From: Thermoplasmata archaeon
GTDB lineage: Archaea > Thermoplasmatota > JASEFT01 > JBBABA01
Direction: 5' to 3'
Assembly: GCA_041657955.1 (NCBI GenBank)
Contig: JBBABA010000006.1
Location: forward strand, 64,566-128,565
Length of the DNA stretch: 64,000 bases
How positions within the stretch are numbered: position 1 is the stretch's first letter; each line of letters opens with the position of its first letter. Below are positions 5,394 to 55,204 of the stretch, one piece after another. The position numbers and the translations under genes were made by a program. Below the pieces are notes generated by a model. The model saw nothing but the letters and a program-made list of their open reading frames with translations, did not search any database and was not told where the DNA came from.

Positions 5394-5567
5394 CGCCGAA
5401 AATTGGTTGTAGGTATATATAATTTGTTTAAAGCAGATTTGTAACCACCTAGATAAAAAATGTTTGATTGCGTGGATAGGAGCGTAAACTGGAGATATGG
5501 GGATTGGTAAAATAAAGGGTTAAATCAAACTAAGATTTACGGACTAAACAACTACATACATTAAATT

Positions 5568-5615
5568 GTAGTGCCTAAAAACTATAGAAATTATTATATA
5601 CAATTTAGGCACTAC
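5568..5615. repeat. 48-bp palindromic element, copy 1 (12-bp stem GTAGTGCCTAAA / TTTAGGCACTAC, 24-nt loop).
   Basis: Perfect 12-bp inverted repeat read directly from the sequence. The loop contains a TATA-like ttattatatac 25-30 nt before the Fic ATG. Confidence 0.8.
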
Positions 5616-5623
5616 ATTATATC

Positions 5624-6589
5624 ATGGCATTTATCCGCGCGAAATTCATCAATGGAGAATATTACTACTATCTTGTCGAATCACGACGCGCCGGCGGAAA
5701 AATTTTACAGGAGACCATAAAATATCTGGGTGCTCGCAGCGAGGCTGAGAAATATGCAGAAACACACAATCTCAAACTCACGGCACCGCGCAGTGCCTTT
5801 CCGATAAAAGCTGAAACATCTCTTGATAAATTAATCGAACTAAAGAAAAAACGATTGTCGAAACTCCGCAGAAACCCGACAATCGAACGTAGATTAAGGG
5901 ATGATATTGCAGTTATCTGGACATATAACTCTACCGCTATTGAGGGCAGTACCCTGAATTTGAAGGAAACCGCACTGCTTCTTCAAGATGGTGTAGCGTC
6001 CGGCAACAAGGCGTTAACCGACTATATGACGGCAGAAGGCCATCGGGATGCTGTGAATATCGTTTATAATTTTGTCGAAAGCAGGCAAACCATCGATGAA
6101 CCCTCGATACTCGCACTTCACAAGGCAGTATTGAAAGGCAATTTTGACGTTCACGTTATCGGAGAATACAGGGACGTACCTGTTTGGATAAGGGGTTCAT
6201 CTTATGTTCCCCCGCCACCAGAGCAGGTGCCTGCATTTATGAAAAAGTTAATCACTCTGGCCAATTCAAACCCAAAACGCCTTGATCCGATAACCCTATC
6301 GGCAATGGTGCACCTGGATTTTGAATCCGTTCACCCGTTTGCTGACGGGAACGGCAGGGTAGGCAGGCTCCTAAGCAACTGGATCCTTATGAAACACAAA
6401 TATCCGCCGATCATCATAGAGAACAGCGAGAAAAAGAAGTACTTCACAGCCCTGGAAAACGCGCAAACAAGGCACGACAAAACCGGTTTGCTGAGGTTTT
6501 TCAAAAAGAAGACGAATCTGGCACTGGATTTTCATCTTGAACGGTTGGATCCGGATTACAAAAAATGGATGAAGACTCTGAAAATGTAG
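5624..6589 (+). CDS. Fic-family AMP-transferase, class II (with N-terminal inhibitory helix motif).
   Basis: Canonical Fic motif HPFADGNGRVGR. Upstream STAIEG matches the [ST]xxxE[GN] inhibitory helix signature. Confidence 0.85.
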   Translation: MAFIRAKFINGEYYYYLVESRRAGGKILQETIKYLGARSEAEKYAETHNLKLTAPRSAFPIKAETSLDKLIELKKKRLSKLRRNPTIERRLRDDIAVIWTYNSTAIEGSTLNLKETALLLQDGVASGNKALTDYMTAEGHRDAVNIVYNFVESRQTIDEPSILALHKAVLKGNFDVHVIGEYRDVPVWIRGSSYVPPPPEQVPAFMKKLITLANSNPKRLDPITLSAMVHLDFESVHPFADGNGRVGRLLSNWILMKHKYPPIIIENSEKKKYFTALENAQTRHDKTGLLRFFKKKTNLALDFHLERLDPDYKKWMKTLKM

Positions 6590-6633
6590 TGCCTAAAAAG
6601 TATGGAAAGTTTTGGGTTGGATTTAGGCACTAC
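6586..6633. repeat. 48-bp palindromic element, copy 2 (same 12-bp stem and 24-nt loop). It overlaps the Fic stop codon.
   Basis: The identical GTAGTGCCTAAA ... TTTAGGCACTAC arms. The loop is partially similar to copy 1. It lies between convergent genes. Confidence 0.8.
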
Positions 6634-6660
6634 GGGGTGGGGGTTTGAGGACACACAAAT

Positions 6661-6840
6661 TCAGATTTTATACTCGGTGTGTTTTTCGCCTATTCCAGAA
6701 GTCCTATAATGCCCTTTATTACATTTGGAGCAATAGTACATCTCTTCAATCTTATATTTTATATGTTCTTTGCCTATTCCTGAACCTTTCCAATGTCCCT
6801 TGCTACATTTTGAACAATAGTAGTATTTTTCATCAGCCAT
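6661..6840 (-). CDS. 59-aa small protein with a tandem duplicated C-x2-C-x3-H ... H motif (putative metal-binding).
   Basis: Manual translation: MADEKYYYCSKCSKGHWKGSGIGKEHIKYKIEEMYYCSKCNKGHYRTSGIGEKHTEYKI. GGAGG SD about 10 nt upstream. It is below the tracker size cutoff. It is co-oriented with, and 22 nt downstream of, the 135-aa ORF. Confidence 0.5.
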   Translation of the reverse strand: MADEKYYYCSKCSKGHWKGSGIGKEHIKYKIEEMYYCSKCNKGHYRTSGIGEKHTEYKI

Positions 6841-6862
6841 AAATATTGAACCTCCTGGTTTG

Positions 6863-7270
6863 TTACAAATCTCGTTTTTCAGTTTGTTGTTCTTCGAGCT
6901 TTTTCATTACCATTCGTTCTAGGTTTCGCTTTACCCTCGGATGCATGCTAGTTGCTTCTGTGAATCTTTTTCCCTTTCCTGGAAGAGCCGCCATGCTTAC
7001 TATATATTCTTGCACTAATTCTCCCCAACTGGTCTCCTTGTGTAAATACCGGTTGCAATGTGTTCGTGATGCATACCCCACAAATACTTGCCAATCGATA
7101 TTGTGTAGTTTTAAGTCGTTTTTCCAATATTTCCATAAATGACTGGCAACTTTTTTGTCGATGTCAATTTCAGTTGCACTTTTAAGAAATTCTTCATCGG
7201 GTTCGGGTGGATTTTTTAATGTAACGTCTAACCACTTGCCCTTTACTCTCATTGTTGATTCCTCTTCCAT
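6863..7270 (-). CDS. Hypothetical protein (about 135 aa from the internal ATG).
   Basis: ORF co-oriented with the recombinase and the 59-aa ORF. No recognisable motifs. The start choice is uncertain. Confidence 0.4.
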   Translation of the reverse strand: MEEESTMRVKGKWLDVTLKNPPEPDEEFLKSATEIDIDKKVASHLWKYWKNDLKLHNIDWQVFVGYASRTHCNRYLHKETSWGELVQEYIVSMAALPGKGKRFTEATSMHPRVKRNLERMVMKKLEEQQTEKRDL

Positions 7271-7704: not shown

Positions 7705-8391
7705 TTATAGTATCTTTTCAACACTTCCTATGATTTTTCCGTTTAATCTAACTTCGCCGGTTCGATAAATCGGATTTTTCAATATAGTCTGAAGCGAGCT
7801 ACGTTTAAGGTTGTACTTCTCGCTTAACTGCGTCCACGACATCCCGTTTGCCTTATCTTTGAACATCTCGCGTATCTTGTCTATCTGCTCTGGATCGGGC
7901 ACAAGTTTGTGCTCTACCATTTTATATCCAAACGGCGGCCTGCATACATAATGCCCTTTTGAAAGTGCAGTTTCCTTGCCGTGCCTAGTCCTCTCAACCG
8001 CCAAATCACGTTCATATTCCGCAGCCGCCAGCAATACGGTTGATTGGAGTTTTCCTGCAGGCGATAATCTGTCCACTGTGCCTTGGTCTGTAGAGCTGAA
8101 TAATTTTAATCCCATTCCATCGAAAGTCTTGAAAACCTGGAGCAGGTCCTCGAGCTTTCTGCCCAATCTATCAACGCGATAAACTAACACGCCGTCAAAT
8201 CCTTTGTATCTTGCGGAACGGAGCATGGCCTGAAATCCTGAACGGTCGAGCGTTTTCCCACTCTTTGCTTCATCAGCAAACTCTGTAAAAATTGTATGGC
8301 TGTGCTCTTTCGCCCATTTTATAAGATGTTCACGCTGCATGTCTACGCTTTGATCGTCTGTAGAAACCCGCAAATACAGTGCTAACTTCAT
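7705..8391 (-). CDS. Serine recombinase, resolvase/invertase family (N-terminal catalytic domain, C-terminal HTH).
   Basis: YLRVSTDDQS catalytic serine motif near the N-terminus and VYRVDRLGR. Size about 228 aa with a C-terminal HTH-like segment. Confidence 0.85.
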   Translation of the reverse strand: MKLALYLRVSTDDQSVDMQREHLIKWAKEHSHTIFTEFADEAKSGKTLDRSGFQAMLRSARYKGFDGVLVYRVDRLGRKLEDLLQVFKTFDGMGLKLFSSTDQGTVDRLSPAGKLQSTVLLAAAEYERDLAVERTRHGKETALSKGHYVCRPPFGYKMVEHKLVPDPEQIDKIREMFKDKANGMSWTQLSEKYNLKRSSLQTILKNPIYRTGEVRLNGKIIGSVEKIL

Positions 8392-10276: not shown

Positions 10277-10969
10277 TCATAACCTATTATCCGCTTCCTT
10301 CTTTTTTTCATACATGCGATCTTTTACCATGTCGACGATCTTCCAGCCCTTCTCCGACAGCAATACAGATGTGGATATTACGTTCTCCAGCTTTATATCT
10401 TGGCGGGCTAGACCCTTTTTGGACAGGTTTTCTAAAATCTTTGTAACTTCAGGCAGGTCGCTTAACTGGTCTATACCGCACATATACAGTATCTCGACTT
10501 CTTTTTGGGATAATTTGTGTTTGTCGCCTGTTTCTTTGTAGATTACGTTCATCTCGTCTTCCGTGATCTGCCTTGTGCTCTTGTCGAATGCGGCCCCCAT
10601 CTCATATTTTATTATGTTCAGTTCGTTATTTTTTTGCGATGTCTTTCCCCTGGCTGTTGCGATAAGAGCTTCCATCCTGTCCTTTACTTCTGAAGTGCAC
10701 CGTTCTAAGACTTTCCATTTTTCCACTTCGATCCATTTGTTAACGTCGCTTTCCGAGACGGTCTTGTGCTTCTCGAAGTATATGTTCTCTATGAAATAAC
10801 CGTCGGCGGCGTCTGCGATTCTGCAAAAGATTATCCTTGCCTCATAATCATTCTCGGTGTGGACTATTTTCTCTACTCTGCCAAAATATCTCTCGTACTC
10901 CAGGCGGCTGTAGATCTTCTTTTCTTTGCCGTTCCAGTCATGCACGTCTTTCCATGAAATGATCATCAT
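10277..10969 (-). CDS. Hypothetical protein (230 aa).
   Basis: Long ORF of ordinary composition. No motif recognised. Confidence 0.45.
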   Translation of the reverse strand: MMIISWKDVHDWNGKEKKIYSRLEYERYFGRVEKIVHTENDYEARIIFCRIADAADGYFIENIYFEKHKTVSESDVNKWIEVEKWKVLERCTSEVKDRMEALIATARGKTSQKNNELNIIKYEMGAAFDKSTRQITEDEMNVIYKETGDKHKLSQKEVEILYMCGIDQLSDLPEVTKILENLSKKGLARQDIKLENVISTSVLLSEKGWKIVDMVKDRMYEKKKEADNRL

Positions 10970-10998
10970 TTTACTCCTTGTTTTTTGTTTTGTGTGTT

Positions 10999-11568
10999 TT
11001 ACTTTTTATTTATTGTGCTTTGCCCCCACCGGCGGTAGATATTGTGGTCGATTTCCAGTGCGTCCAGGATTTTGCCGACCGTGAAATTTATTATATCATC
11101 TACGTTTTTCGGTTTTGGGTAGAATGCCGGCATTGCCGGCAGAATCAGCGCGCCAGCCTCGGATAACGCCGTCATGTTTTTGAGTTGAATGGTGCTCAGC
11201 GGCGTCTCTCTCGGCACTATGATCAATTTTCTCCGCTCCTTCAGGCAAACACTTGCTGTTCTGGTAATTAGGTTGTCTGAAATGCCACATGCGATTTTTG
11301 ACAGTGTAGACATCGAACAGGGAGCTATCACCATTGCATCGAATTTAACGCTTCCTGACGCAATAGGCGCGAACAAATCGTCGTTCTCATAAGAATGCTT
11401 TGCAAGTTTCTTGATTTGAATTACGTTTTTTCCAACCTCGTACCCGATTATTTTTTTAGCGTTATCTGAGAGTATGAGATATATATCTGCCATTTTTCTA
11501 AGGTAATTTAATAGCGATACCCCGTAAACAACGCCCGATGCACCAGTAATCCCGACGACAATCTTCAT
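10999..11568 (-). CDS. ubiX: UbiX/Pad1-family flavin prenyltransferase.
   Basis: MKIVVGITGASG N-terminal flavoprotein motif. Size 189 aa. Confidence 0.8.
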   Translation of the reverse strand: MKIVVGITGASGVVYGVSLLNYLRKMADIYLILSDNAKKIIGYEVGKNVIQIKKLAKHSYENDDLFAPIASGSVKFDAMVIAPCSMSTLSKIACGISDNLITRTASVCLKERRKLIIVPRETPLSTIQLKNMTALSEAGALILPAMPAFYPKPKNVDDIINFTVGKILDALEIDHNIYRRWGQSTINKK

Positions 11569-11635
11569 GCTCTCGTTATGGGTGAGGGGATTTGTGTAAT
11601 TTATACCTATCGGAGAAATTTATAAAAAAAGAAAG

Positions 11636-11682
11636 AGTTGATAAAAAAAATAAAAAAAAGAAAAAAGGAGATTATTTTCTCC
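11636..11682 (-). terminator. Hairpin plus oligo-T terminator for the giant surface protein gene.
   Basis: On the minus strand, GGAGAAAATAATCTCC overlaps the stop codon and is followed by a long T-rich run (plus-strand poly-A at 11640-11666). Confidence 0.35.
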
Positions 11683-14600
11683 TTCTTCTAGCCAGCAATG
11701 CGACCAGCACGAGAGCTACTGCGAATCCAGCAACCTCGAAGCCTGGCGCGAAACCGGACTCCTTCTTGGCGGCTTTAGCTGTTATGGTGAAGTTCAGTAT
11801 TTCCTGTTCGTTGCCTACTACGATCGTAACCGTGTAGTTGCCTTTGCTGGTATTTGTGGGTACGGAAACCTTGCCGATTATGCTTATTTCCTTACCTGGC
11901 TCAATCGAGATGTCAGTGCTCGTCTTTCCCTCTAAATCTACCCAATCAGACGTGTCTCCGAATGCGGACACTGCTATCGAACCGTTTGCTGTGCCGTTGT
12001 TTCTTATCTTAATCGATATTTCGAAGCTGTCTCCAGGCACTATTTTTGTCGGTATGCCTCCTTTGAACACAACATCAACAAGTTCGAACTTCGGGACTGG
12101 GTGGTTCAATACGATAGTTATGTTGCGATATGCATCGTTCTCTGTTATCGTGGCGTTTGCGGCATTCTTGCCGTCTATCGTAAAGTTCGCTGCGTTTATG
12201 GTTTTAATCTCCCAGCCTACTGGCGATTCTGTTCTTATGTTCATTGTTGCTGATTTTTGTTCGACATTGCCGACTATATTGTGGGTTTCTCCAGCAGGAA
12301 TGCCGGTGTAGGTCAGCTCGATCGTGATTGTTATAGTCACGGCCTTTACTGCGCTGACGTTCATACCCAGCATTGCACTGAAATCGGGGGTTTGCTTCAT
12401 CATAACAGGCAATATGCCGTCAACCATGATCGGCGTCATGTTCGCTGTATTCGTCTCTATTGTAGTCAGGTTCGCCGCAAAGTTGGTTATTTCGTCTTGT
12501 TCAATGATTTCATTTCTGTTGCCTGCCATATCCATAGCCATAGCAATTTGTTGAACGCTTGCCGCGTCCAGTGTTTGCTTTGCGACTATCTTGATGCTGG
12601 TGAAGTCTGCATTCGGGATCAGTGTGTACACCTCGTTTAATGTTTGGGCTTCTTTTTTCTCCTCTGTCGGTGGTGTGACCATCGGTGCTGTCGGGTCGTC
12701 CTTGTAGCCTGTTCCGTAACTCGTTTCATACGATTTATTGCCTTTTCCGTCATTGTATCCGGTAGCATATCCCGCATAATAGCCCTGCTCGAATCCCCGG
12801 GCATATCCGTCTTTTCTGCCTACTTCATAATCCTTAACACCTTCGTTTTTCTCCTGCACGTTCCTGTCAATTGTCATCTTTTCGAAGATGCTTACTTCTT
12901 CATTAGACAGATAGCCGTCGCCGTTGCCTGCCCATTCTACGGAATCTATAATCTTTCTGAGTTCGCTGTACGAATCCACATTAATCTCCTTGCGGATGTC
13001 TATGCCAGTTTGTATCTGTTCTATACTATATGGTGTGTGCATTATTACCGCGTAGACACTTTCAGTTACCGTCCCCAGCGTTGGACTGATAGAGCTTTCG
13101 TTTCGTATCAACATCATGTCCAATGATGACGCTGTCAACGAGTGTGCAAGTATGTCTGCCTTCGAAATTTTGATGCATCTATAATCAAAGACGTACGGCC
13201 TTATTTCCGGTTTTATGCTGTTGATGTCTATCTGCCACCCATTCGGTACAATTAGTACAAAGGTATCGAAGTTCAGGTTTTCACTTGTTGGTGGTGTATT
13301 GTCAGCGAATTGTATCTTTGGATTAGGCATCATGCCTGCTCCCGCCATAAAGTCGAAGAACACGTCGTTGCCATATGGCCCTTCGTTGCCACTCTCGTTT
13401 AATGCCACAACTCTAAAGATTATCTTTGTCTTCTTGAACGGTTCTATCAACATGAAGTTGTGCGTAGCGTTGCTGACGTTGAATACTGCAACAAGAACCC
13501 TATTGCTGACGTCCGCCGGGCTGTAATTGGACATGTATGTATTCATATTCGCATTAATTTCATATAAGTATATGCGATAGCCGCTTATGTTTTGGAACTG
13601 TGTTGGCGGTTGGTTCGGCGGTTGTTGACCGGGTGATACGTTTGTGCTCGTGCCATTTGGTGGCACCATATACGGCATGTATGGCATATCTTTCCATACA
13701 ATATCAAGTGCGTGCCCGTCGAATCTGAATTCTGTCATTTGCGGGGGCAACTGTGCCATAGAACCCGACCACACAAAGTTCACAGGACCTGTGCTTATGT
13801 TCGCCGACCAATTCTCAACAAATTTTGTCTGTATCGGCACGAATTTCTGCGGGAATTCGTATAGTATGATGCTATCAGCCGTTATTATATCGTTGCTAGT
13901 TACGCTTCCGACTGCGCCGATTAACTTGAGTTTAGACTCGACGCGCATAGGCAGACTGCCATCCACGAGCATTTTCATCCCTGGCATCTCGTTTTGGGAC
14001 GATGTGTCAGATTGTGATTGTTGAGATTCTCCCGTGGATATTCTGCGCGCTATCTCGGCACTGTATTTCTTAAGTTCTTCATAAGTTATCATGCCGTCCT
14101 TGTTGCCGAAATTGCTGTCTATCTCTCGTCTTACCTCAAGATATGTTTTAGGCACGGGTAATACAAGTGCGTTACCATTCGCCTTGAGATATACGATCCT
14201 CGTATCATTCGTCCCTTCGGAATCCATTATAATATAGAGTTTGCCTTGAACTTGTGTTATGTTCTTCACGCTTTTGTCAGTCGAACGCATTATTGCGAAC
14301 TTGACGCCTGCTGTGTTATGAGTTATCTCTAGAACTCTCTGATCCAGTGACACTGTTCCGAGTTCTGAAGGCACGGTAGTGTTGTCGATAATCCACCCTG
14401 GTGCAGTTATGACAACGATTCCAGAGAATACGGATGTTCCATCACTTTTCATACCTGGATCGAATATAGCAACTACGTATCTATCCCTGTCAGGCATCCT
14501 AAACATAGCTTTTACGCCCACATTTGCCGTAAACGATGTGTTTGAATCTACACTGCCCGATATATTCTGGAATTCGACATCTACACCCATGATCATTGGC

Positions 14601-30625: not shown

Positions 30626-31060
30626 ATGCGAATTAAACTTATCTGCGTCGGGCGGGTAAAAGAGCAGTTCATAGCCCAAGGGTGCAGCCTGTACTTAGAG
30701 CGATTGGAAAGACTGCAGAGACTGGAGGTTATAGAGGTTACAGACCTGGACACAGACAAGGAGGGAAAGCTCATACTCGCAAAATGTAAGGAGCTTCCGA
30801 TCTACGCCTTCTCTGAAGAGGGCGAGGAGTTCACGTCTATCAAGTTCGCGGATTTAATCCGTAATCTTACGAGTGCTACAGGCGATGTTGCATTCGTTAT
30901 CGGCGGTCCAGACGGCCTGTCCGACGAAGTAAAGAAAAAGGCGAAAAAGATCATCTCACTCTCCAAGATGACCTTCACGCATGAGATGGCGCGGCTGATA
31001 CTTCTGGAACAGATATACAGAGCCGTGGCTATACTGAAAGGGATGCCGTATCACAAATAA
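30626..31060 (+). CDS. rlmH: 23S rRNA (pseudouridine-N3)-methyltransferase RlmH (SPOUT).
   Basis: 144 aa. The C-terminal LLEQIYRAVAILKGMPYHK matches the RlmH C-terminal signature. VIGGPDGL SPOUT motif. Confidence 0.8.
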   Translation: MRIKLICVGRVKEQFIAQGCSLYLERLERLQRLEVIEVTDLDTDKEGKLILAKCKELPIYAFSEEGEEFTSIKFADLIRNLTSATGDVAFVIGGPDGLSDEVKKKAKKIISLSKMTFTHEMARLILLEQIYRAVAILKGMPYHK

Positions 31061-31098
31061 ATTTTCTAAAAATAAAATTATTAAAAATTGGTCGGTTA
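31037..31098. repeat. Direct repeat A (rlmH 3' end plus about 40 bp downstream).
   Basis: About 58/62 identity with 33226-33286. Confidence 0.8.
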
Positions 31099-31176
31099 AA
31101 TGGTGGATATACACCATTGAAACATAATTGGAATATTACTTGAATTTTAACACGCCAATTTTGTTTATACCGTTTC

Positions 31177-32322
31177 TCACACCAAGAACCCCCAACTATG
31201 CTCGCAGTTGCCGTATCCTCCGTCCATCGAATCCAGCCGTATTACGCGCTCCTTGTTCTTGTGGTAGAACTGCTTTACTATTGAGGGGTATTCGTTGTAG
31301 TACAATATTGTATTCTTGAGCGGGAACGGTTGTTCGAATCTCCAATATGCGTGCGCGTACGCCTCGCACTCGACGTATATCTCTTCCTCTTCTTTCTTGT
31401 TCTTCGCGCCTACGCTGAACGTTGGAAGGTGGGATGATGCTGGATTGTGCTTCTTGCCGATCCAGATATTTTTCATCTCATATGTCTTGTCCTCTTTCGC
31501 GCAGTAGAACTCGACCTTGTTCGAAAGATATATGCGTCCTCTTGCCTCGAACGTCCTGTGCGGTTCAAGGCCGCGCATGAGCATTGGAAGCCCGGCGTGG
31601 AACGCCGAATACTGCAGGTACGAGCCGTCACCGAAATGTATCGCGCTCCAGTACCAGGGCACCGCAGGGGAGTTTACTGTGACCTTCTGAAAATAGGCGG
31701 TGCCAGTGATGTGTTCCTTTTCCCCAGTGCCGCCTTCTCCAGGTTCGGTGCGCATAGTGCCCGCAAGGTCCATCTTTCTTATCTTCATTATGTTGTAGCC
31801 GTATTTCTTTCTGAACATGCGCTCGCTGTAATCGTGCTGGGAAAGCGGACCGCTTACACAAGGCGTCATCGTGAAATCAAAATCGATGCCGGGTTTTTTT
31901 ATGAACAGCTTATATTCTTTCTTGTTGCCCTCGAACCTGCATCCGTCCTTCTTTTTTGTCACGGAGAAAAGCGCGCCGCTCTCCGAGTCGTCGCCGTAGT
32001 CCAGCACTGCGTACTCGTCGCGCTCGAGAATGAATTCGTCTGTCATCTTTTTTCCGTCAAAATACCATGCCGCTGCCATGCCGTCGAACTCAAGGCCGGA
32101 CTGCGTTTTCTTCAGCCCCTTCTTCCTTTGCCAGGGCATCTGGTCGACCAATATATTTTTGCAATTTTTCGTTGACCAAAGTATCATGAATTGCTTGGGG
32201 TGAAGCGGGTCGTCTTTATTGTCGATATAGAGAAGCCAGAACCACCACCACCACGTCAGGCGTGGGATCTTTATGCCGGGGTCCATGAACCACATACTAT
32301 CTCTTTGGTGCCGCATTGCCAT
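31177..32322 (-). CDS. Hypothetical protein (381 aa), Trp-rich N-terminus. No recognisable family.
   Basis: Long ORF lying between the rlmH-derived repeats. Confidence 0.5.
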   Translation of the reverse strand: MAMRHQRDSMWFMDPGIKIPRLTWWWWFWLLYIDNKDDPLHPKQFMILWSTKNCKNILVDQMPWQRKKGLKKTQSGLEFDGMAAAWYFDGKKMTDEFILERDEYAVLDYGDDSESGALFSVTKKKDGCRFEGNKKEYKLFIKKPGIDFDFTMTPCVSGPLSQHDYSERMFRKKYGYNIMKIRKMDLAGTMRTEPGEGGTGEKEHITGTAYFQKVTVNSPAVPWYWSAIHFGDGSYLQYSAFHAGLPMLMRGLEPHRTFEARGRIYLSNKVEFYCAKEDKTYEMKNIWIGKKHNPASSHLPTFSVGAKNKKEEEEIYVECEAYAHAYWRFEQPFPLKNTILYYNEYPSIVKQFYHKNKERVIRLDSMDGGYGNCEHSWGFLV

Positions 32323-32400
32323 CCCGTATCTACCTCTTGGCGATATAAATGTTCAACAATAAACATTTATCAGTGTATTAATATCTTTGGTGTTGGGTTT

Positions 32401-32454
32401 CTGGAACAAACATACAGAGCCGCAACTATACTGAAAGGGATGCTGCATCATAGG
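32401..32454. repeat. Diverged partial copy of the rlmH 3' coding end (repeat C).
   Basis: ctggaacaaacatacagagccgcaactatactgaaagggatgctgcatca aligns at about 85% with 31006-31055 and encodes LEQTYRAATILKGMLHHR. Confidence 0.7.
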
Positions 32455-32589
32455 TGAAAAATGAGTCTTTCGACCTAAGGGCGGGTTGTACACCCAAAAC
32501 ACACATTGCCTCCCGCCCATGCACAACTATAATTTTATAAAACAATAACTTTATAAAGTTATAATTACATACATATTATTGGTGATACT

Positions 32590-32787
32590 ATGAGCACAAT
32601 AGCACTTCCGCAAGACACACTGAAGGAGCTCAAGCTCCTGCAGATAGAAAAAGGCTACAGAAGCATGAAAGACGTGGTAGAGGATCTGCTCCTCGAATAT
32701 AAGAGGTCCAAGTTTCTGGCAGCGAGCGAGAATTTCAAGCAGAGGATGAAGAAACGCGGCATAAAAATCGAGGAACTGGTAAAATAA
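32590..32787 (+). CDS. Ribbon-helix-helix (CopG/VapB-like) antitoxin.
   Basis: 65 aa. N-terminal beta-strand TIALPQDT then a helix. GGTGA SD. It lies 24 nt upstream of a PIN gene. Confidence 0.6.
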   Translation: MSTIALPQDTLKELKLLQIEKGYRSMKDVVEDLLLEYKRSKFLAASENFKQRMKKRGIKIEELVK

Positions 32788-32810
32788 ACGTAGTTCGGGA
32801 AACTGATAAA

Positions 32811-33218
32811 ATGAACATAGTAGTCGACACCAACATCCTCTTCTCGGCGTTATACGATCCAGACTCGAACGCTGGCCTGCTTATCATGGCCGCAATAGAC
32901 GGTGTTATCGACTTATACGCACCGGATACAGTAAAAGAGGAAATAACCCGCACAGTTAAAAATAAGCTGTCGTACACAGAAGAAGAGGCGGAAGAACTCA
33001 TCACATCGTTGCCTGTGAAATGGATCGAAAGCGAAGCATACGCATCTTCCATGCCTTACGCCAAAACACAACTTAGCCACGAAAACGACGTCCCGATACT
33101 CGCATGCGCCCTAATGCTCGGATACGACATCGTAAGCGGCGACAAGCACCTGTTGAATATCAAGCCGGAAATCGTAAAGGTGTGGGCGCTATGCGAACTT
33201 GTGAAAAAACTAGCATGA
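32811..33218 (+). CDS. PIN-domain toxin (VapC-like).
   Basis: N-terminal VVDTNIL with a conserved Asp. About 135 aa with acidic residues positioned as in PIN. Confidence 0.75.
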   Translation: MNIVVDTNILFSALYDPDSNAGLLIMAAIDGVIDLYAPDTVKEEITRTVKNKLSYTEEEAEELITSLPVKWIESEAYASSMPYAKTQLSHENDVPILACALMLGYDIVSGDKHLLNIKPEIVKVWALCELVKKLA

Positions 33219-33225
33219 AAGGGAT

Positions 33226-33286
33226 GCGTATCACAAATAAACTTTCTAAAAATAAAATTGTTAAAAATTGGTCGGTTGGACAATTT
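33226..33286. repeat. Direct repeat B (copy of the rlmH 3' end plus downstream sequence).
   Basis: gaaagggatgcgtatcacaaataaactttctaaaaataaaattgttaaaaattggtcggtt. It is near-identical to repeat A with a 1-nt deletion and starts immediately after the vapC stop. Confidence 0.8.
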
Positions 33287-33388
33287 TTGCAAAGGATAGT
33301 TTGTTGATGCACATTTCATCTAACCATTGATAGTAGCATGAACTTGGTTGATATATCACTTTCCCAACTCTATGTATACCAATTTAAT

Positions 33389-33619
33389 TTATTTACTCCT
33401 TCTCATTTTCTTTTTAGTTGTGAAAAACAAAAAAAGAGTCGTCCCTCCAATAAACAGAAGTAAGAGAATTATTACACTTTGAAAAACCGAAGAAATCGCA
33501 TCGCCAGATACCAAATTAGAATCAATAATCAAAATAACTACCATAGCGATGAAAATACAAAGCATTATTTTGGCAGAAACTCTCGCAACTATCTTCATGC
33601 CTAATTTCTCCATATCCAC
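33389..33619 (-). CDS. Small membrane protein (two TM helices).
   Basis: 76-aa hydrophobic ORF. Weak support. Confidence 0.3.
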   Translation of the reverse strand: MDMEKLGMKIVARVSAKIMLCIFIAMVVILIIDSNLVSGDAISSVFQSVIILLLLFIGGTTLFLFFTTKKKMRRSK

Positions 33620-33682
33620 AATCCTCCTCTTAGGATGGTGGTGAAACTCTCTTTACCAAAATCAGTACAACCCCACATTATC

Positions 33683-34801
<1,119 letters not shown>

Positions 34802-53839: not shown

Positions 53840-54085
53840 ATGACAGAAACGCAAGTCATACTTAGAATAGAAAAAGGCATCCTAGAAGAGCTCGATAGGT
53901 ATCTTCCGACCTATGGTTTCAAAACGAGAAACGAGTGGTTCAGAACCAAAGTACGAGAATTTATCGAGGAGTCGAAAAAACGGAGAATGCTTGAAAAACT
54001 CGATAAGCTTACGGTGGACGACATAACCGAAGAAGAGATAGCCCAGATGGTCAGGGACTGGCGTAAGCGAAAGGCGAAATATTGA
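53840..54085 (+). CDS. Ribbon-helix-helix antitoxin (VapB/CopG-like).
   Basis: 81 aa. An N-terminal beta-strand then helices. 4-nt overlap with the PIN gene. Confidence 0.55.
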   Translation: MTETQVILRIEKGILEELDRYLPTYGFKTRNEWFRTKVREFIEESKKRRMLEKLDKLTVDDITEEEIAQMVRDWRKRKAKY

Positions 54086-54507
54086 CTGTAATCGTCGATA
54101 CGAACGTGGTAATAGCCGCCCTGATTAAAGACGGCGTTGTACGAAGGATACTTGTCGGGAACCCAGGTGCATGGGTAATGCCAGACACATGCTTCGAGGA
54201 AATATGGCGGCATAGGGGCCGATGGAATAGACATAATGTTGGAGATAACGAATTAAAAACGATATTAGATGAATTTGTCGAGGATTATGTTTTCCTGTTG
54301 TCGTCCGAAGTTTACAATGAGAAAATGAGCGCCGCCGAGAAATTATCGATCGACCAGGATGATGCGCCAGTGATCGCCCTCGCATTGTCTGTTGAGAATG
54401 AAGGCATCTGGACATTTAACACAAAGCATTTCAAGAATGTTCAGTCTGCTGGTATAAACTTACTTACCACTGAGGAAATCGCAAAGACGTATAAACCAAT
54501 GAAGTAG
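54082..54507 (+). CDS. PIN-domain toxin (VapC-like).
   Basis: TVIVDTNVVIAAL N-terminus. TTG start overlapping the upstream stop. Confidence 0.7.
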   Translation: MTVIVDTNVVIAALIKDGVVRRILVGNPGAWVMPDTCFEEIWRHRGRWNRHNVGDNELKTILDEFVEDYVFLLSSEVYNEKMSAAEKLSIDQDDAPVIALALSVENEGIWTFNTKHFKNVQSAGINLLTTEEIAKTYKPMK

Positions 54508-54520
54508 TGCAGAGAGGCAA

Positions 54521-55204
54521 ATGATGAACTGCCAGCAAATATTACTCTACGAACAAACAGAAAAACCCAAAATTTTCATCCCCTGCCCGACCGAGCACCC
54601 GACAATCGCCCACCCAACCGAAACCGACTACAGGGGGGCGATGTTCAACGAAATTTTATTTGATTATTTTTCAGAATATAAAAACAAGATAACAATAAAC
54701 CCGATTTTTAACGACATAATAAATCAGAGCCAAATCGAAGCCCAGTTCAACCCCTACTCGGTCGAGAACATCCCGCCGAGGATCGAAAACGTAAACATAC
54801 ACTACACCCACCTAAAGGTGGGTGCGCTTCCAAATCTATGGAATTCCAGCGATATAGACAAGAATTCCATACGATCGTACAAAATTCCACCAATGAATTT
54901 TGTAGATTTCACTTATGAGGCGGTTGTTCCCGTGAAATTTGTAAACAGCGACGTAAAGTACAGCTGGGAAGAGATCCATGTCTCCATGGACGTAGTAAGC
55001 AGTATATGGAGCTTATTCAACTGGATCGTAAAGACAATAACACAGGTAGTCACGCAGAAGGTGGAGATCGTAGAGCACTGCTGGGCTGTCGTAAGCTGCG
55101 ACGTCTACGACGTCAGCAAGATAAGCTACGTGCAGATCAGGGTCATAGACACTGACAAGTCGAAGACGTTCTACCCGCAGGCAACGCAGGCACACTTATT
55201 CTAA
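54521..55204 (+). CDS. Hypothetical protein (227 aa).
   Basis: ORF only. Confidence 0.4.
   Translation: MMNCQQILLYEQTEKPKIFIPCPTEHPTIAHPTETDYRGAMFNEILFDYFSEYKNKITINPIFNDIINQSQIEAQFNPYSVENIPPRIENVNIHYTHLKVGALPNLWNSSDIDKNSIRSYKIPPMNFVDFTYEAVVPVKFVNSDVKYSWEEIHVSMDVVSSIWSLFNWIVKTITQVVTQKVEIVEHCWAVVSCDVYDVSKISYVQIRVIDTDKSKTFYPQATQAHLF

Follow-up and report, generated by a model that had tools for sequence, protein, structure and literature searches.

Copies of the rlmH 3' end flank small gene modules in a Thermoplasmata archaeon

Is the 3' end of rlmH a place where archaeal chromosomes take up accessory genes? The gene, also called orfX, is known as the docking site of SCCmec, the staphylococcal cassette chromosome (SCC) island behind methicillin-resistant Staphylococcus aureus, and this role has been treated as a staphylococcal and lately also an enterococcal peculiarity. 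The question is raised for archaea by a stretch of 64,000 nucleotides (nt) from an uncultivated Thermoplasmata archaeon (assembly GCA_041657955.1, contig JBBABA010000006.1, positions 64,566–128,565), which we analyzed and refer to as the window, with positions counted from its first base. In this window, rlmH is followed by two further copies of its own 3' end; a gene for a protein of 381 amino acids (aa) lies between rlmH and the nearer copy, and a vapBC-like toxin–antitoxin pair lies between the two copies (table 1). An earlier note on this DNA, made from its sequence alone, had read the copies as the attL/attR signature of an integrated element. Our comparisons support a reading of the repeats as attL/attR-like scars that were left when DNA entered at the rlmH 3' end: the modules between them are present or absent in related genomes exactly at the repeat edges, and rlmH is intact throughout.

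The rlmH Gene and Three Copies of Its Tail

The window RlmH matches the Pfam model SPOUT_MTase (PF02590) over residues 1–143 of its 144 residues (E = 2.4e-45) and keeps, in an alignment with its relatives, the invariant C-terminal residues of the family (...EQIYRA...YH.). It also matches the NCBIfam RlmH equivalog models, all below their cut-offs (131.8 vs 172), so its exact substrate is assumed. Archaeal RlmH relatives are numerous in the protein database; searches of GTDB species genomes with RlmH peptide patterns returned bacterial RlmH only, at 43% identity or less, and no close relative.

The working tail of this gene, copy A, consists of its last 19 codons, which end in Tyr-His-Lys (YHK) and a stop codon, and of a 37-nt, A/T-rich downstream arm whose 3' end reads GGTCGGTT and which is repeated at 33243–33277. 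Copy B is a displaced full-length tail (...LEQTYRAATILKGMLHHR*) with its own stop codon at 32457; its positions 32399–32450 are 87% identical to 31002–31053 of copy A, and it ends in ...HHR* vs the ...YHK* of rlmH. This ending (CATCATAGGTGA) is that of the working rlmH of a relative described below, L013 (TATCATAGGTGA), and it matches the consensus of the closest RlmH relatives, ...YHR. By its sequence, copy B is a former working tail of the YHR type, and copies A and C are of the YHK type. Copy C is truncated and frameshifted and holds the last 8 rlmH codons and the 37-nt arm. Its core at 33216–33277 is 95–96% identical to 31035–31097 of copy A apart from a 1-nt deletion (GATGC-GTATCAC), and its first triplet is the TGA stop codon of vapC (33216–33218). 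The earlier note had placed this copy about 10 nt too far downstream, at 33226–33286, had let it begin after the vapC stop, and had credited it with about 20 codons; the copy with 19 codons is B. Copies B and C overlap by merely about 12–27 nt (AACTAnnnTGAAAGGGATGC) and together make up one full tail copy that is split by vapBC. Copy C would be the oldest of the three tails.

The 35-nt downstream arm occurs twice exactly and a 26-nt core once at three or fewer mismatches, and the number expected from 100 shuffles is 0 for both, which excludes a chance origin of the repeats; the earlier claim that the rlmH 3' end recurs twice downstream thus stands, as copies B and C. A blastn-short search found no further tail copies in the 64-kb window. 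Exact-pattern scans for the repeat found none in IMG/VR or in JGI metagenome contigs, although identical proteins from JGI are listed in the database, and blastn against phage and plasmid collections gave no match. The repeat is accordingly not a widespread intergenic sequence, and we rejected a dispersed repeat. We likewise rejected a known RNA or terminator element, as Rfam gave no match at E ≤ 1 and terminator-like sites are not in excess, and an island linked to a tRNA gene, as the window holds no tRNA or tmRNA gene.

Two cassette bodies lie between the copies. That of cassette 1 starts 37 nt past the rlmH stop codon, and that of cassette 2 runs from TGCATCATAGGTGA... at 32458 to ...AACTAGCATGAAAGGGATGC at 33215.

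Presence and Absence of the Modules in Other Genomes

Three more assemblies, L007–L009, are essentially of the same strain and share the arrangement of the window; the organism is contained in the public runs SRR8449812, SRR29054603, SRR29054606, and SRR22388187. In the relative L012, by contrast, vapBC is absent. The RlmH of L012 is 97% identical to that of the window and its DNA 91.5% identical over 6.4 kb, cassette 1 body included (about 91%). The two sequences are collinear up to 32443, the last base of GGGATGC, where L012 jumps to 33216–33280, so that its gene order is rlmH, copy A, the 381-aa gene, and one uninterrupted B+C tail (6592–6686). L012 has an empty-site-like allele for vapBC, of the kind that the earlier note had asked for in a related genome. 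The 5' arms of window copy B and of the L012 copy are 71% identical over 35 nt, which is not anomalous because the adjacent non-coding DNA is 77% identical.

A more distant relative is represented by two unjoined contigs from one JGI sample, 3300039234. On L013, a thiolase gene and a DUF35-like gene are followed by rlmH with a YHR-type (copy-B-type) tail (...TATCATAGGTGA), 17 nt after which the contig ends. L104 starts at the end of vapB and continues with vapC, whose product is 89% identical to the window VapC, copy C with the same 1-nt deletion as in the window, the 37-nt arm, a small gene, tgt, purF, and a gene for an LSM-domain (Sm-like) protein; this right flank is syntenic with that of the window. 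The organism would thus carry vapBC without the 381-aa gene, and no single fixed arrangement is seen among the relatives. On this evidence the two modules occur in three combinations: L012 has the 381-aa gene without vapBC, L013/L104 has vapBC without the 381-aa gene (if the two contigs belong together), and the window has both. The 1-nt deletion in copy C is common to the window, L012, and L104, which argues that copy C was already a scar in their common ancestor. A gain of vapBC in the window rather than its loss in L012 was set aside, as the shared deletion favors loss in L012.

The L013 rlmH (6417–6947) has a peculiarity of its own: it encodes an RlmH of 176 aa with a 32-residue insertion inside the SPOUT domain that consists of imperfect repeats rich in Gly, Ser, Thr, and Val (...GFPSMSVKDVTGASATGVTGTSVTGAKGASVTS...).

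A script compared each rlmH end with its own downstream DNA at about 90 loci, of which about 56 were informative. In L016 and seven sister contigs, which come from another Thermoplasmata-like lineage with an RlmH 54% identical to that of the window, the rlmH stop codon is separated from a 57-nt displaced tail by a Fic gene that is encoded on the opposite strand. In the related L103, which has the same neighbors, rlmH leads straight into the next gene, and both the Fic gene and the second tail are absent. The L103 tail and its downstream DNA are about 95% identical to the displaced tail of L016, and it is the working tail of L016 that has diverged; because the L103 tail matches the displaced copy, the displaced tail of L016 is the native one, and the working end came with the cargo. 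The third case is the bacterial contig L035, where rlmH is followed after 790 nt by a 50-nt tail copy of 96% identity and a small open reading frame (ORF) occupies the interval; its RlmH is 83% identical to one encoded on a 5.9-Mb contig. The displaced tails start at similar distances before the end of the stop codon (59 nt in the window, 59 nt in L012, about 57–60 nt in L016, and 56 nt in L035), and all of them begin in the L-E-Q codons of the conserved LEQIYRA motif.

Compared over their whole loci, L016 and L103 are strongly mosaic, with identities of 54–100% per 100-nt interval and sharp switches between them, which suggests frequent recombination in this lineage beyond rlmH alone.

Proposed Events, Alternative Explanations, and Known Systems

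From the anatomy of the locus, the presence/absence polymorphism, and the independent recurrences, all of which are observed, we infer an order of events, a circular intermediate, and a kind of recombinase. We regard it as highly probable that rlmH and tgt enclose an insertion hot spot, which is anchored on the rlmH 3' end and holds cassettes. Two small recombinase-less cassettes would have been added in succession, each incoming piece bringing a substitute rlmH tail, so that rlmH stays intact and its prior tail is pushed downstream as a scar. The incoming tail would recombine with the resident one through a Campbell-type event or a double crossover to the same effect, and serial events would stack the scars. 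The locus would have begun with a YHK-type tail and 37-nt arm as the working end, which is now copy C. The vapBC pair would then have arrived with a YHR-type tail, now copy B, truncating C at the GAAAGGGATGC core, and in the ancestor of the window and L012 the 381-aa module would have followed with a YHK tail and arm (copy A), displacing B from L-E-Q onward. Later, recombination of B with C at the core common to both would have removed vapBC from L012. By parsimony, vapBC and the truncated copy C are ancestral, since the 1-nt deletion is found in the window, L012, and L104 alike. Within this account, the earlier attL/attR interpretation is largely right, in that tail copies bound the modules and the polymorphism falls at their edges; of the nested or tandem units that it had suggested, the tandem arrangement stands and the nested one does not.

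The founding structure would be the work of a site-specific recombinase acting in trans, with strand exchange in the conserved L-E-Q codons about 57–60 nt before the stop codon, and subsequent spread between related genomes would occur by ordinary homologous recombination, with the rlmH body and the displaced tail as homology arms. A site-specific founding event is favored by the 56–60-nt boundary that independent lineages share: were its position random along a gene of about 430 nt, the chance that another two fall within about 9 nt of the first would be roughly (9/430)^2, or about 4e-4 by rough arithmetic. For the enzyme acting in trans taken by itself, we put the chance somewhat below even; the blended account of hot spot, cassettes, and such an enzyme seems to us rather likely.

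Several observations weigh against this account. The pattern was found in three lineages only among the approximately 56 informative rlmH loci, the order of events is derived by parsimony from very short sequences, and the linkage of L013 to L104 would join two separate contigs. The right junction of vapBC lies elsewhere in the tail, in the L-K-G codons, than the other junctions. Between L016 and L103, identity drops inside rlmH, about 300 nt short of the stop codon, from 97% to 66% and is back at 92–98% at the displaced tail; a divergence that starts inside rlmH is more in keeping with homologous recombination as the means of transfer than with exchange at L-E-Q. No recombinase is encoded in the island or adjoining it. 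The sole recombinase found in the 64 kb (7705–8391) is 23 kb away without a demonstrated link to the island, its neighbors are unchanged in other strains, and it is not visibly mobile. Scans of IMG/VR, JGI metagenome contigs, and phage and plasmid collections found no plasmid or virus bearing an attP site and no circular form, the circle itself not having been specifically sought.

The statement of the earlier note that no integrase is present holds for the units, inside which none was found; a Pfam scan of about 50 window ORFs detected no tyrosine recombinase, and tblastn with the window serine recombinase found none near rlmH in the loci compared. That serine recombinase has, after its Resolvase domain, a stretch (PPFGY...ILKNPIYRTGE) that looks, on inspection by eye, like the first part of the recombinase domain found in large serine recombinases; lacking the zinc-ribbon part, it may be truncated. 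The viral contigs encode no RlmH relative. A degenerate RlmH-tail pattern led to L108 (IMG/VR UViG_2617271335_000005, 10689–12296), a provirus contig with phage lysis genes in which an isolated RlmH tail, beginning about 72 nt before its stop codon, abuts or overlaps the 3' end of a gene for a large serine recombinase with Resolvase, Recombinase, and zinc-ribbon domains that is apparently split into two ORFs. L108 resembles a phage whose attachment gene is rlmH, and judged from its RlmH tail it is probably bacterial.

The absence of a nearby recombinase fits an explanation without any dedicated enzyme, in which circular or linear DNA bearing a tail enters by host homologous recombination through a single Campbell-type or a double crossover and is lost again via the direct repeats, the first duplication having arisen once by illegitimate recombination. 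The repeats are long (57–96 nt) and include 37 nt of non-coding DNA, the L016/L103 identity profile has the look of a recombination tract, and the deletion of vapBC in L012 needs only a direct repeat of 12–27 nt. Against these points stand the left boundary that three unrelated lineages share 56–60 nt before the gene end, with the chance probability given above, and the need for each founding event to bring a substitute tail by accident, and we consider this explanation unlikely. Integrase-bearing elements at rlmH exist in bacteria, namely SCC, its enterococcal counterpart (ECC), and the L108 provirus, and decay to scars is common at tRNA sites, so the cassettes could also be the last remnants of larger self-mobile elements (a provirus, a plasmid, or an SCC-like island) that have lost their integrase. 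This appears improbable: the 3–4 independent cases (the 381-aa gene, vapBC, Fic, and the L035 ORF) are all 0.8–1.3 kb and hold one gene or operon, none has kept a recombinase or any other fragment of an element gene, every unit has its own upstream region, and the same small modules are conserved across strains that are 8–13% diverged.

A purely local rearrangement, with a tail duplicated in place, unrelated genes landing later, and repeats that are non-mobile or serve as terminator or regulatory modules, would account for the lack of any mobile-element gene and for an A/T- and T-rich arm that could serve as an archaeal terminator. It conflicts with the allelic types, as copy B is YHR and copies A and C are YHK, so that B is no copy of the resident tail; with L016, where the displaced tail is native and the working tail foreign; with a presence/absence polymorphism that maps exactly onto the repeat edges; and with the lack of an Rfam match or of a terminator-like excess. 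We regard it as highly improbable.

Of the known systems, the hot spot with its cassettes resembles SCC and ECC most closely. SCC/SCCmec elements of staphylococci and ECC of enterococci attach at the 3' end of rlmH (orfX), including as tandem and recombinase-less units (PMC6222049; bioRxiv 10.64898/2026.03.31.715619; PMC11470126), and rlmH, which the earlier note had called an unusual target, is thus an established attachment gene. Flanking the units are rlmH-derived direct repeats that contain the core TATCATAA and in ECC measure about 50 bp (PMC6222049; bioRxiv 10.64898/2026.03.31.715619), and units without ccr genes can be moved in trans by CcrAB/CcrC (PMC6222049; bioRxiv 10.64898/2026.03.31.715619; PMC11470126). 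The locus described here shares with them the target at the rlmH 3' end, the intact gene, the rlmH-derived direct repeats, the tandem layout, the units without recombinase, and an accessory cargo, which in SCC/ECC is often of defense or toxin type. It differs in its host, which is an archaeon (Thermoplasmata) and not a Firmicute, in units of 0.8–1.3 kb with 1–2 genes vs about 20–70 kb, in longer repeats (57–96 nt), and in the lack of a CcrAB/CcrC-type large serine recombinase (Resolvase, Recombinase, and zinc-ribbon domains) in the island and in the 64-kb window. Three of the four junctions, those of the 381-aa, Fic, and L035 modules, lie at L-E-Q, 56–60 nt before the stop codon, and not at the terminal GA/TATCATAA site, so that some 40 nt separate the main junction from the Ccr crossover further downstream, which falls in the last ~20 nt of rlmH, whereas the vapBC indel maps to ...GAAAGGGATGC, GA included. 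Copies A and C hold TATCACAA, which fits the SCC core TATCA[TC]AA, and copy B has CATCATAG; in copy C a GA stands 6 nt upstream of TATCACAA, the spacing described for SCC. This likeness is no evidence for a shared enzyme because TATCACAA represents the conserved Y-H-K-stop codons of RlmH. The locus works like an SCC-type site, but we do not file it as a member of the SCC/ECC family.

The isolated RlmH tail at the edge of the L108 provirus is a further likeness, and it argues that capture of rlmH tails is not confined to SCC; in L108 a recombinase gene abuts the tail, whereas the archaeal islets have no such gene. Genomic islands of the tRNA type and integrons are more distant analogues than SCC/ECC. 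In islands at the 3' ends of tRNA, tmRNA, or protein genes, the incoming DNA provides a replacement 3' end and the old end comes to lie beyond the island; at tRNA sites, repeated integration produces a row of partial gene copies, and the repeat begins on its left at a preferred position in the gene. The substitute 3' end, the surviving target gene, and the piled-up gene fragments are common to these tyrosine-integrase islands and our locus, which differs in its protein-gene target, its far smaller units, the lack of a tyrosine integrase among the scanned window ORFs, and a window devoid of tRNA genes. Integron cassettes are likewise about 1 kb long, carry one gene or a toxin–antitoxin pair, stand in tandem at one site, and have no internal recombinase, but here the sites are direct copies of a host gene end and not attC hairpins, there is no IntI or attI, and the island holds two cassettes only, which differ in orientation.

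In a limited full-text library, the literature on rlmH as an integration site consisted of staphylococcal, macrococcal, and enterococcal work and the archaeal papers made no mention of rlmH, and cassettes flanked by rlmH tails have apparently not been described in archaea before. That they occur in two Thermoplasmata lineages as well as in a bacterium unrelated to these, and that sister genomes have empty sites, suggests that the rlmH end receives accessory, toxin, or defense genes far more generally than had been supposed. A bolder proposal, which we make tentatively and hold to be somewhat unlikely, is that the rlmH tail is an attachment site in both Bacteria and Archaea, with an "archaeal cassette chromosome" of one-gene cassettes (a substitute tail with toxin–antitoxin, Fic, or enzyme cargo) in Thermoplasmata and in at least one non-Firmicute bacterium and with a putative recombinase that acts in trans at L-E-Q and not at the Ccr site. 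Were there a dedicated enzyme, it would represent a new archaeal site-specific recombination system that handles very small cargo units; were there none, a short conserved gene tail would act as a portable homology arm by which single genes spread through ordinary recombination.

Cargo, Right Flank, and Other Features of the Window

Table 1. Features of the rlmH–tgt Stretch and the Distant Serine Recombinase Gene (Window Coordinates)
Feature	Position	Strand	Remarks
rlmH, target gene; 23S rRNA pseudouridine N3-methyltransferase family, SPOUT	30626..31060	+	intact
Copy A, working rlmH tail (last 19 codons, YHK* end) and 37-nt downstream arm	31002..31097	+	
Cassette 1 body, one gene and its own A/T-rich upstream region	31098..32398	.	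bounded by copies A and B
381-aa cargo gene, AttH/CrtC-like double beta-barrel protein (predicted)	31177..32322	-	homologues, AlphaFold2 model, Foldseek
Copy B, displaced full-length rlmH tail	32399..32457	+	
Cassette 2 body, ribbon-helix-helix–PIN pair and its own upstream palindrome	32458..33215	.	absent in L012, present in L104
vapB-like antitoxin candidate, 65 aa, ribbon-helix-helix	32590..32787	+	Pfam RHH_1, borderline
vapC-like PIN-domain toxin candidate, 135 aa	32811..33218	+	Pfam PIN_2, PIN_3, PIN
Copy C, truncated frameshifted tail and 37-nt arm	33208..33280	+	core 33216–33277, weaker similarity from 33208
Third strain-variable segment with 76-aa hydrophobic ORF (33389–33619)	33281..33682	-	no tail copy bounding it
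tgt, tRNA-guanine transglycosylase, conserved right flank	33683..34792	-	Pfam TGT, E = 3e-145
Serine recombinase, 228 aa	7705..8391	-	Resolvase domain only at Pfam thresholds; 23 kb from rlmH

The 381-aa protein had been taken for an orphan, a status it lost in homology and structure searches. The database contains 457 homologues at E ≤ 1e-3, and where a source is named it is a metagenome-assembled genome of Thermoplasmatota or Euryarchaeota; outside the window/L012 cluster none exceeds 43% identity, in searches with the same tool that returned proteins from the L013/L104 sample. There is no Pfam or NCBIfam match at E ≤ 0.01, and a profile of the family found no match among PDB sequences. An AlphaFold2 model built from an alignment of 44 sequences has a predicted local distance difference test score (pLDDT) of 92.9, and its best Foldseek match in the PDB is AttH (2ich, E = 1.5e-10), with further matches to the fungal Diels-Alderases Fsa2, Phm7, and CghA and to kievitone hydratase (template modeling scores of 0.43–0.57). 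The model has the two-domain all-beta barrel fold of the AttH/CrtC group, of which the protein is not a member by Pfam sequence matching; it is probably an enzyme acting on, or a binder of, a hydrophobic substrate. The gene has the highest G+C content at third codon positions among the window ORFs (GC3 = 0.678, z = 2.6), and its homologues sit in unrelated chromosomal neighborhoods, by which the cargo looks foreign and modular. The family as a habitual neighbor of rlmH was rejected, as the homologues P0002 and P0007 lie in other contexts without flanking repeats.

The second cassette has the gene layout of a type II VapBC pair, with the vapB candidate ending 23 nt before vapC and an 18-nt inverted repeat (32536–32571) upstream of vapB. 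The vapB product matches Pfam RHH_1 just under the gathering score (E = 8e-4, 19.7 vs 20.5 bits), and the vapC product matches PIN_2 (E = 2.5e-11, 44.4 bits; cut-off 22.4) as well as PIN_3 and PIN. Among the 28 homologues of the VapC candidate, the C-terminal length and pattern are conserved, and that the vapC 3' end (CTTGTGAAA) looks like the beginning of the tail was accordingly judged a coincidence. A defense function of the island cargo was rejected, as PADLOC gave no match for the 381-aa, VapB, VapC, and 76-aa proteins; the Fic genes alone match (SoFic/PDC-S04).

To the right of copy C, the slot up to tgt is filled by unrelated segments in the window, L012 (6690–7396), and L104 (500–1125). 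Their minus-strand ORFs encode 76 aa in the window, at least 208 aa in L012, and 151 aa in L104, and several look hydrophobic; the 76-aa ORF has the lowest G+C content of the window ORFs (0.325, z = -3.1). Collinearity between the window and L104 picks up again exactly at the tgt stop codon.

A second ribbon-helix-helix–PIN pair is found in the window at 53840–54507, its PIN protein being just 23% identical to the first. Beside it, on the reverse strand at 54524–54600, about 60–75 nt, which span the 5' end of a 227-aa ORF without Pfam match, are 78% like the sequence (GGTCGG..GGGGATGAAAATTT...) found after the 37-nt arm in L012 and L104.

The window also encodes a Fic protein (5624–6589; Pfam Fic, PADLOC SoFic/PDC-S04), whose gene lies between 53-nt direct repeats (5563–5615 and 6581–6633). 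These are 79% identical and each contain a 12-bp inverted repeat (GTAGTGCCTAAA ... TTTAGGCACTAC); they could be an operator/terminator pair or another kind of cassette boundary. The protein is 34% identical to the Fic cargo at the L016 rlmH.

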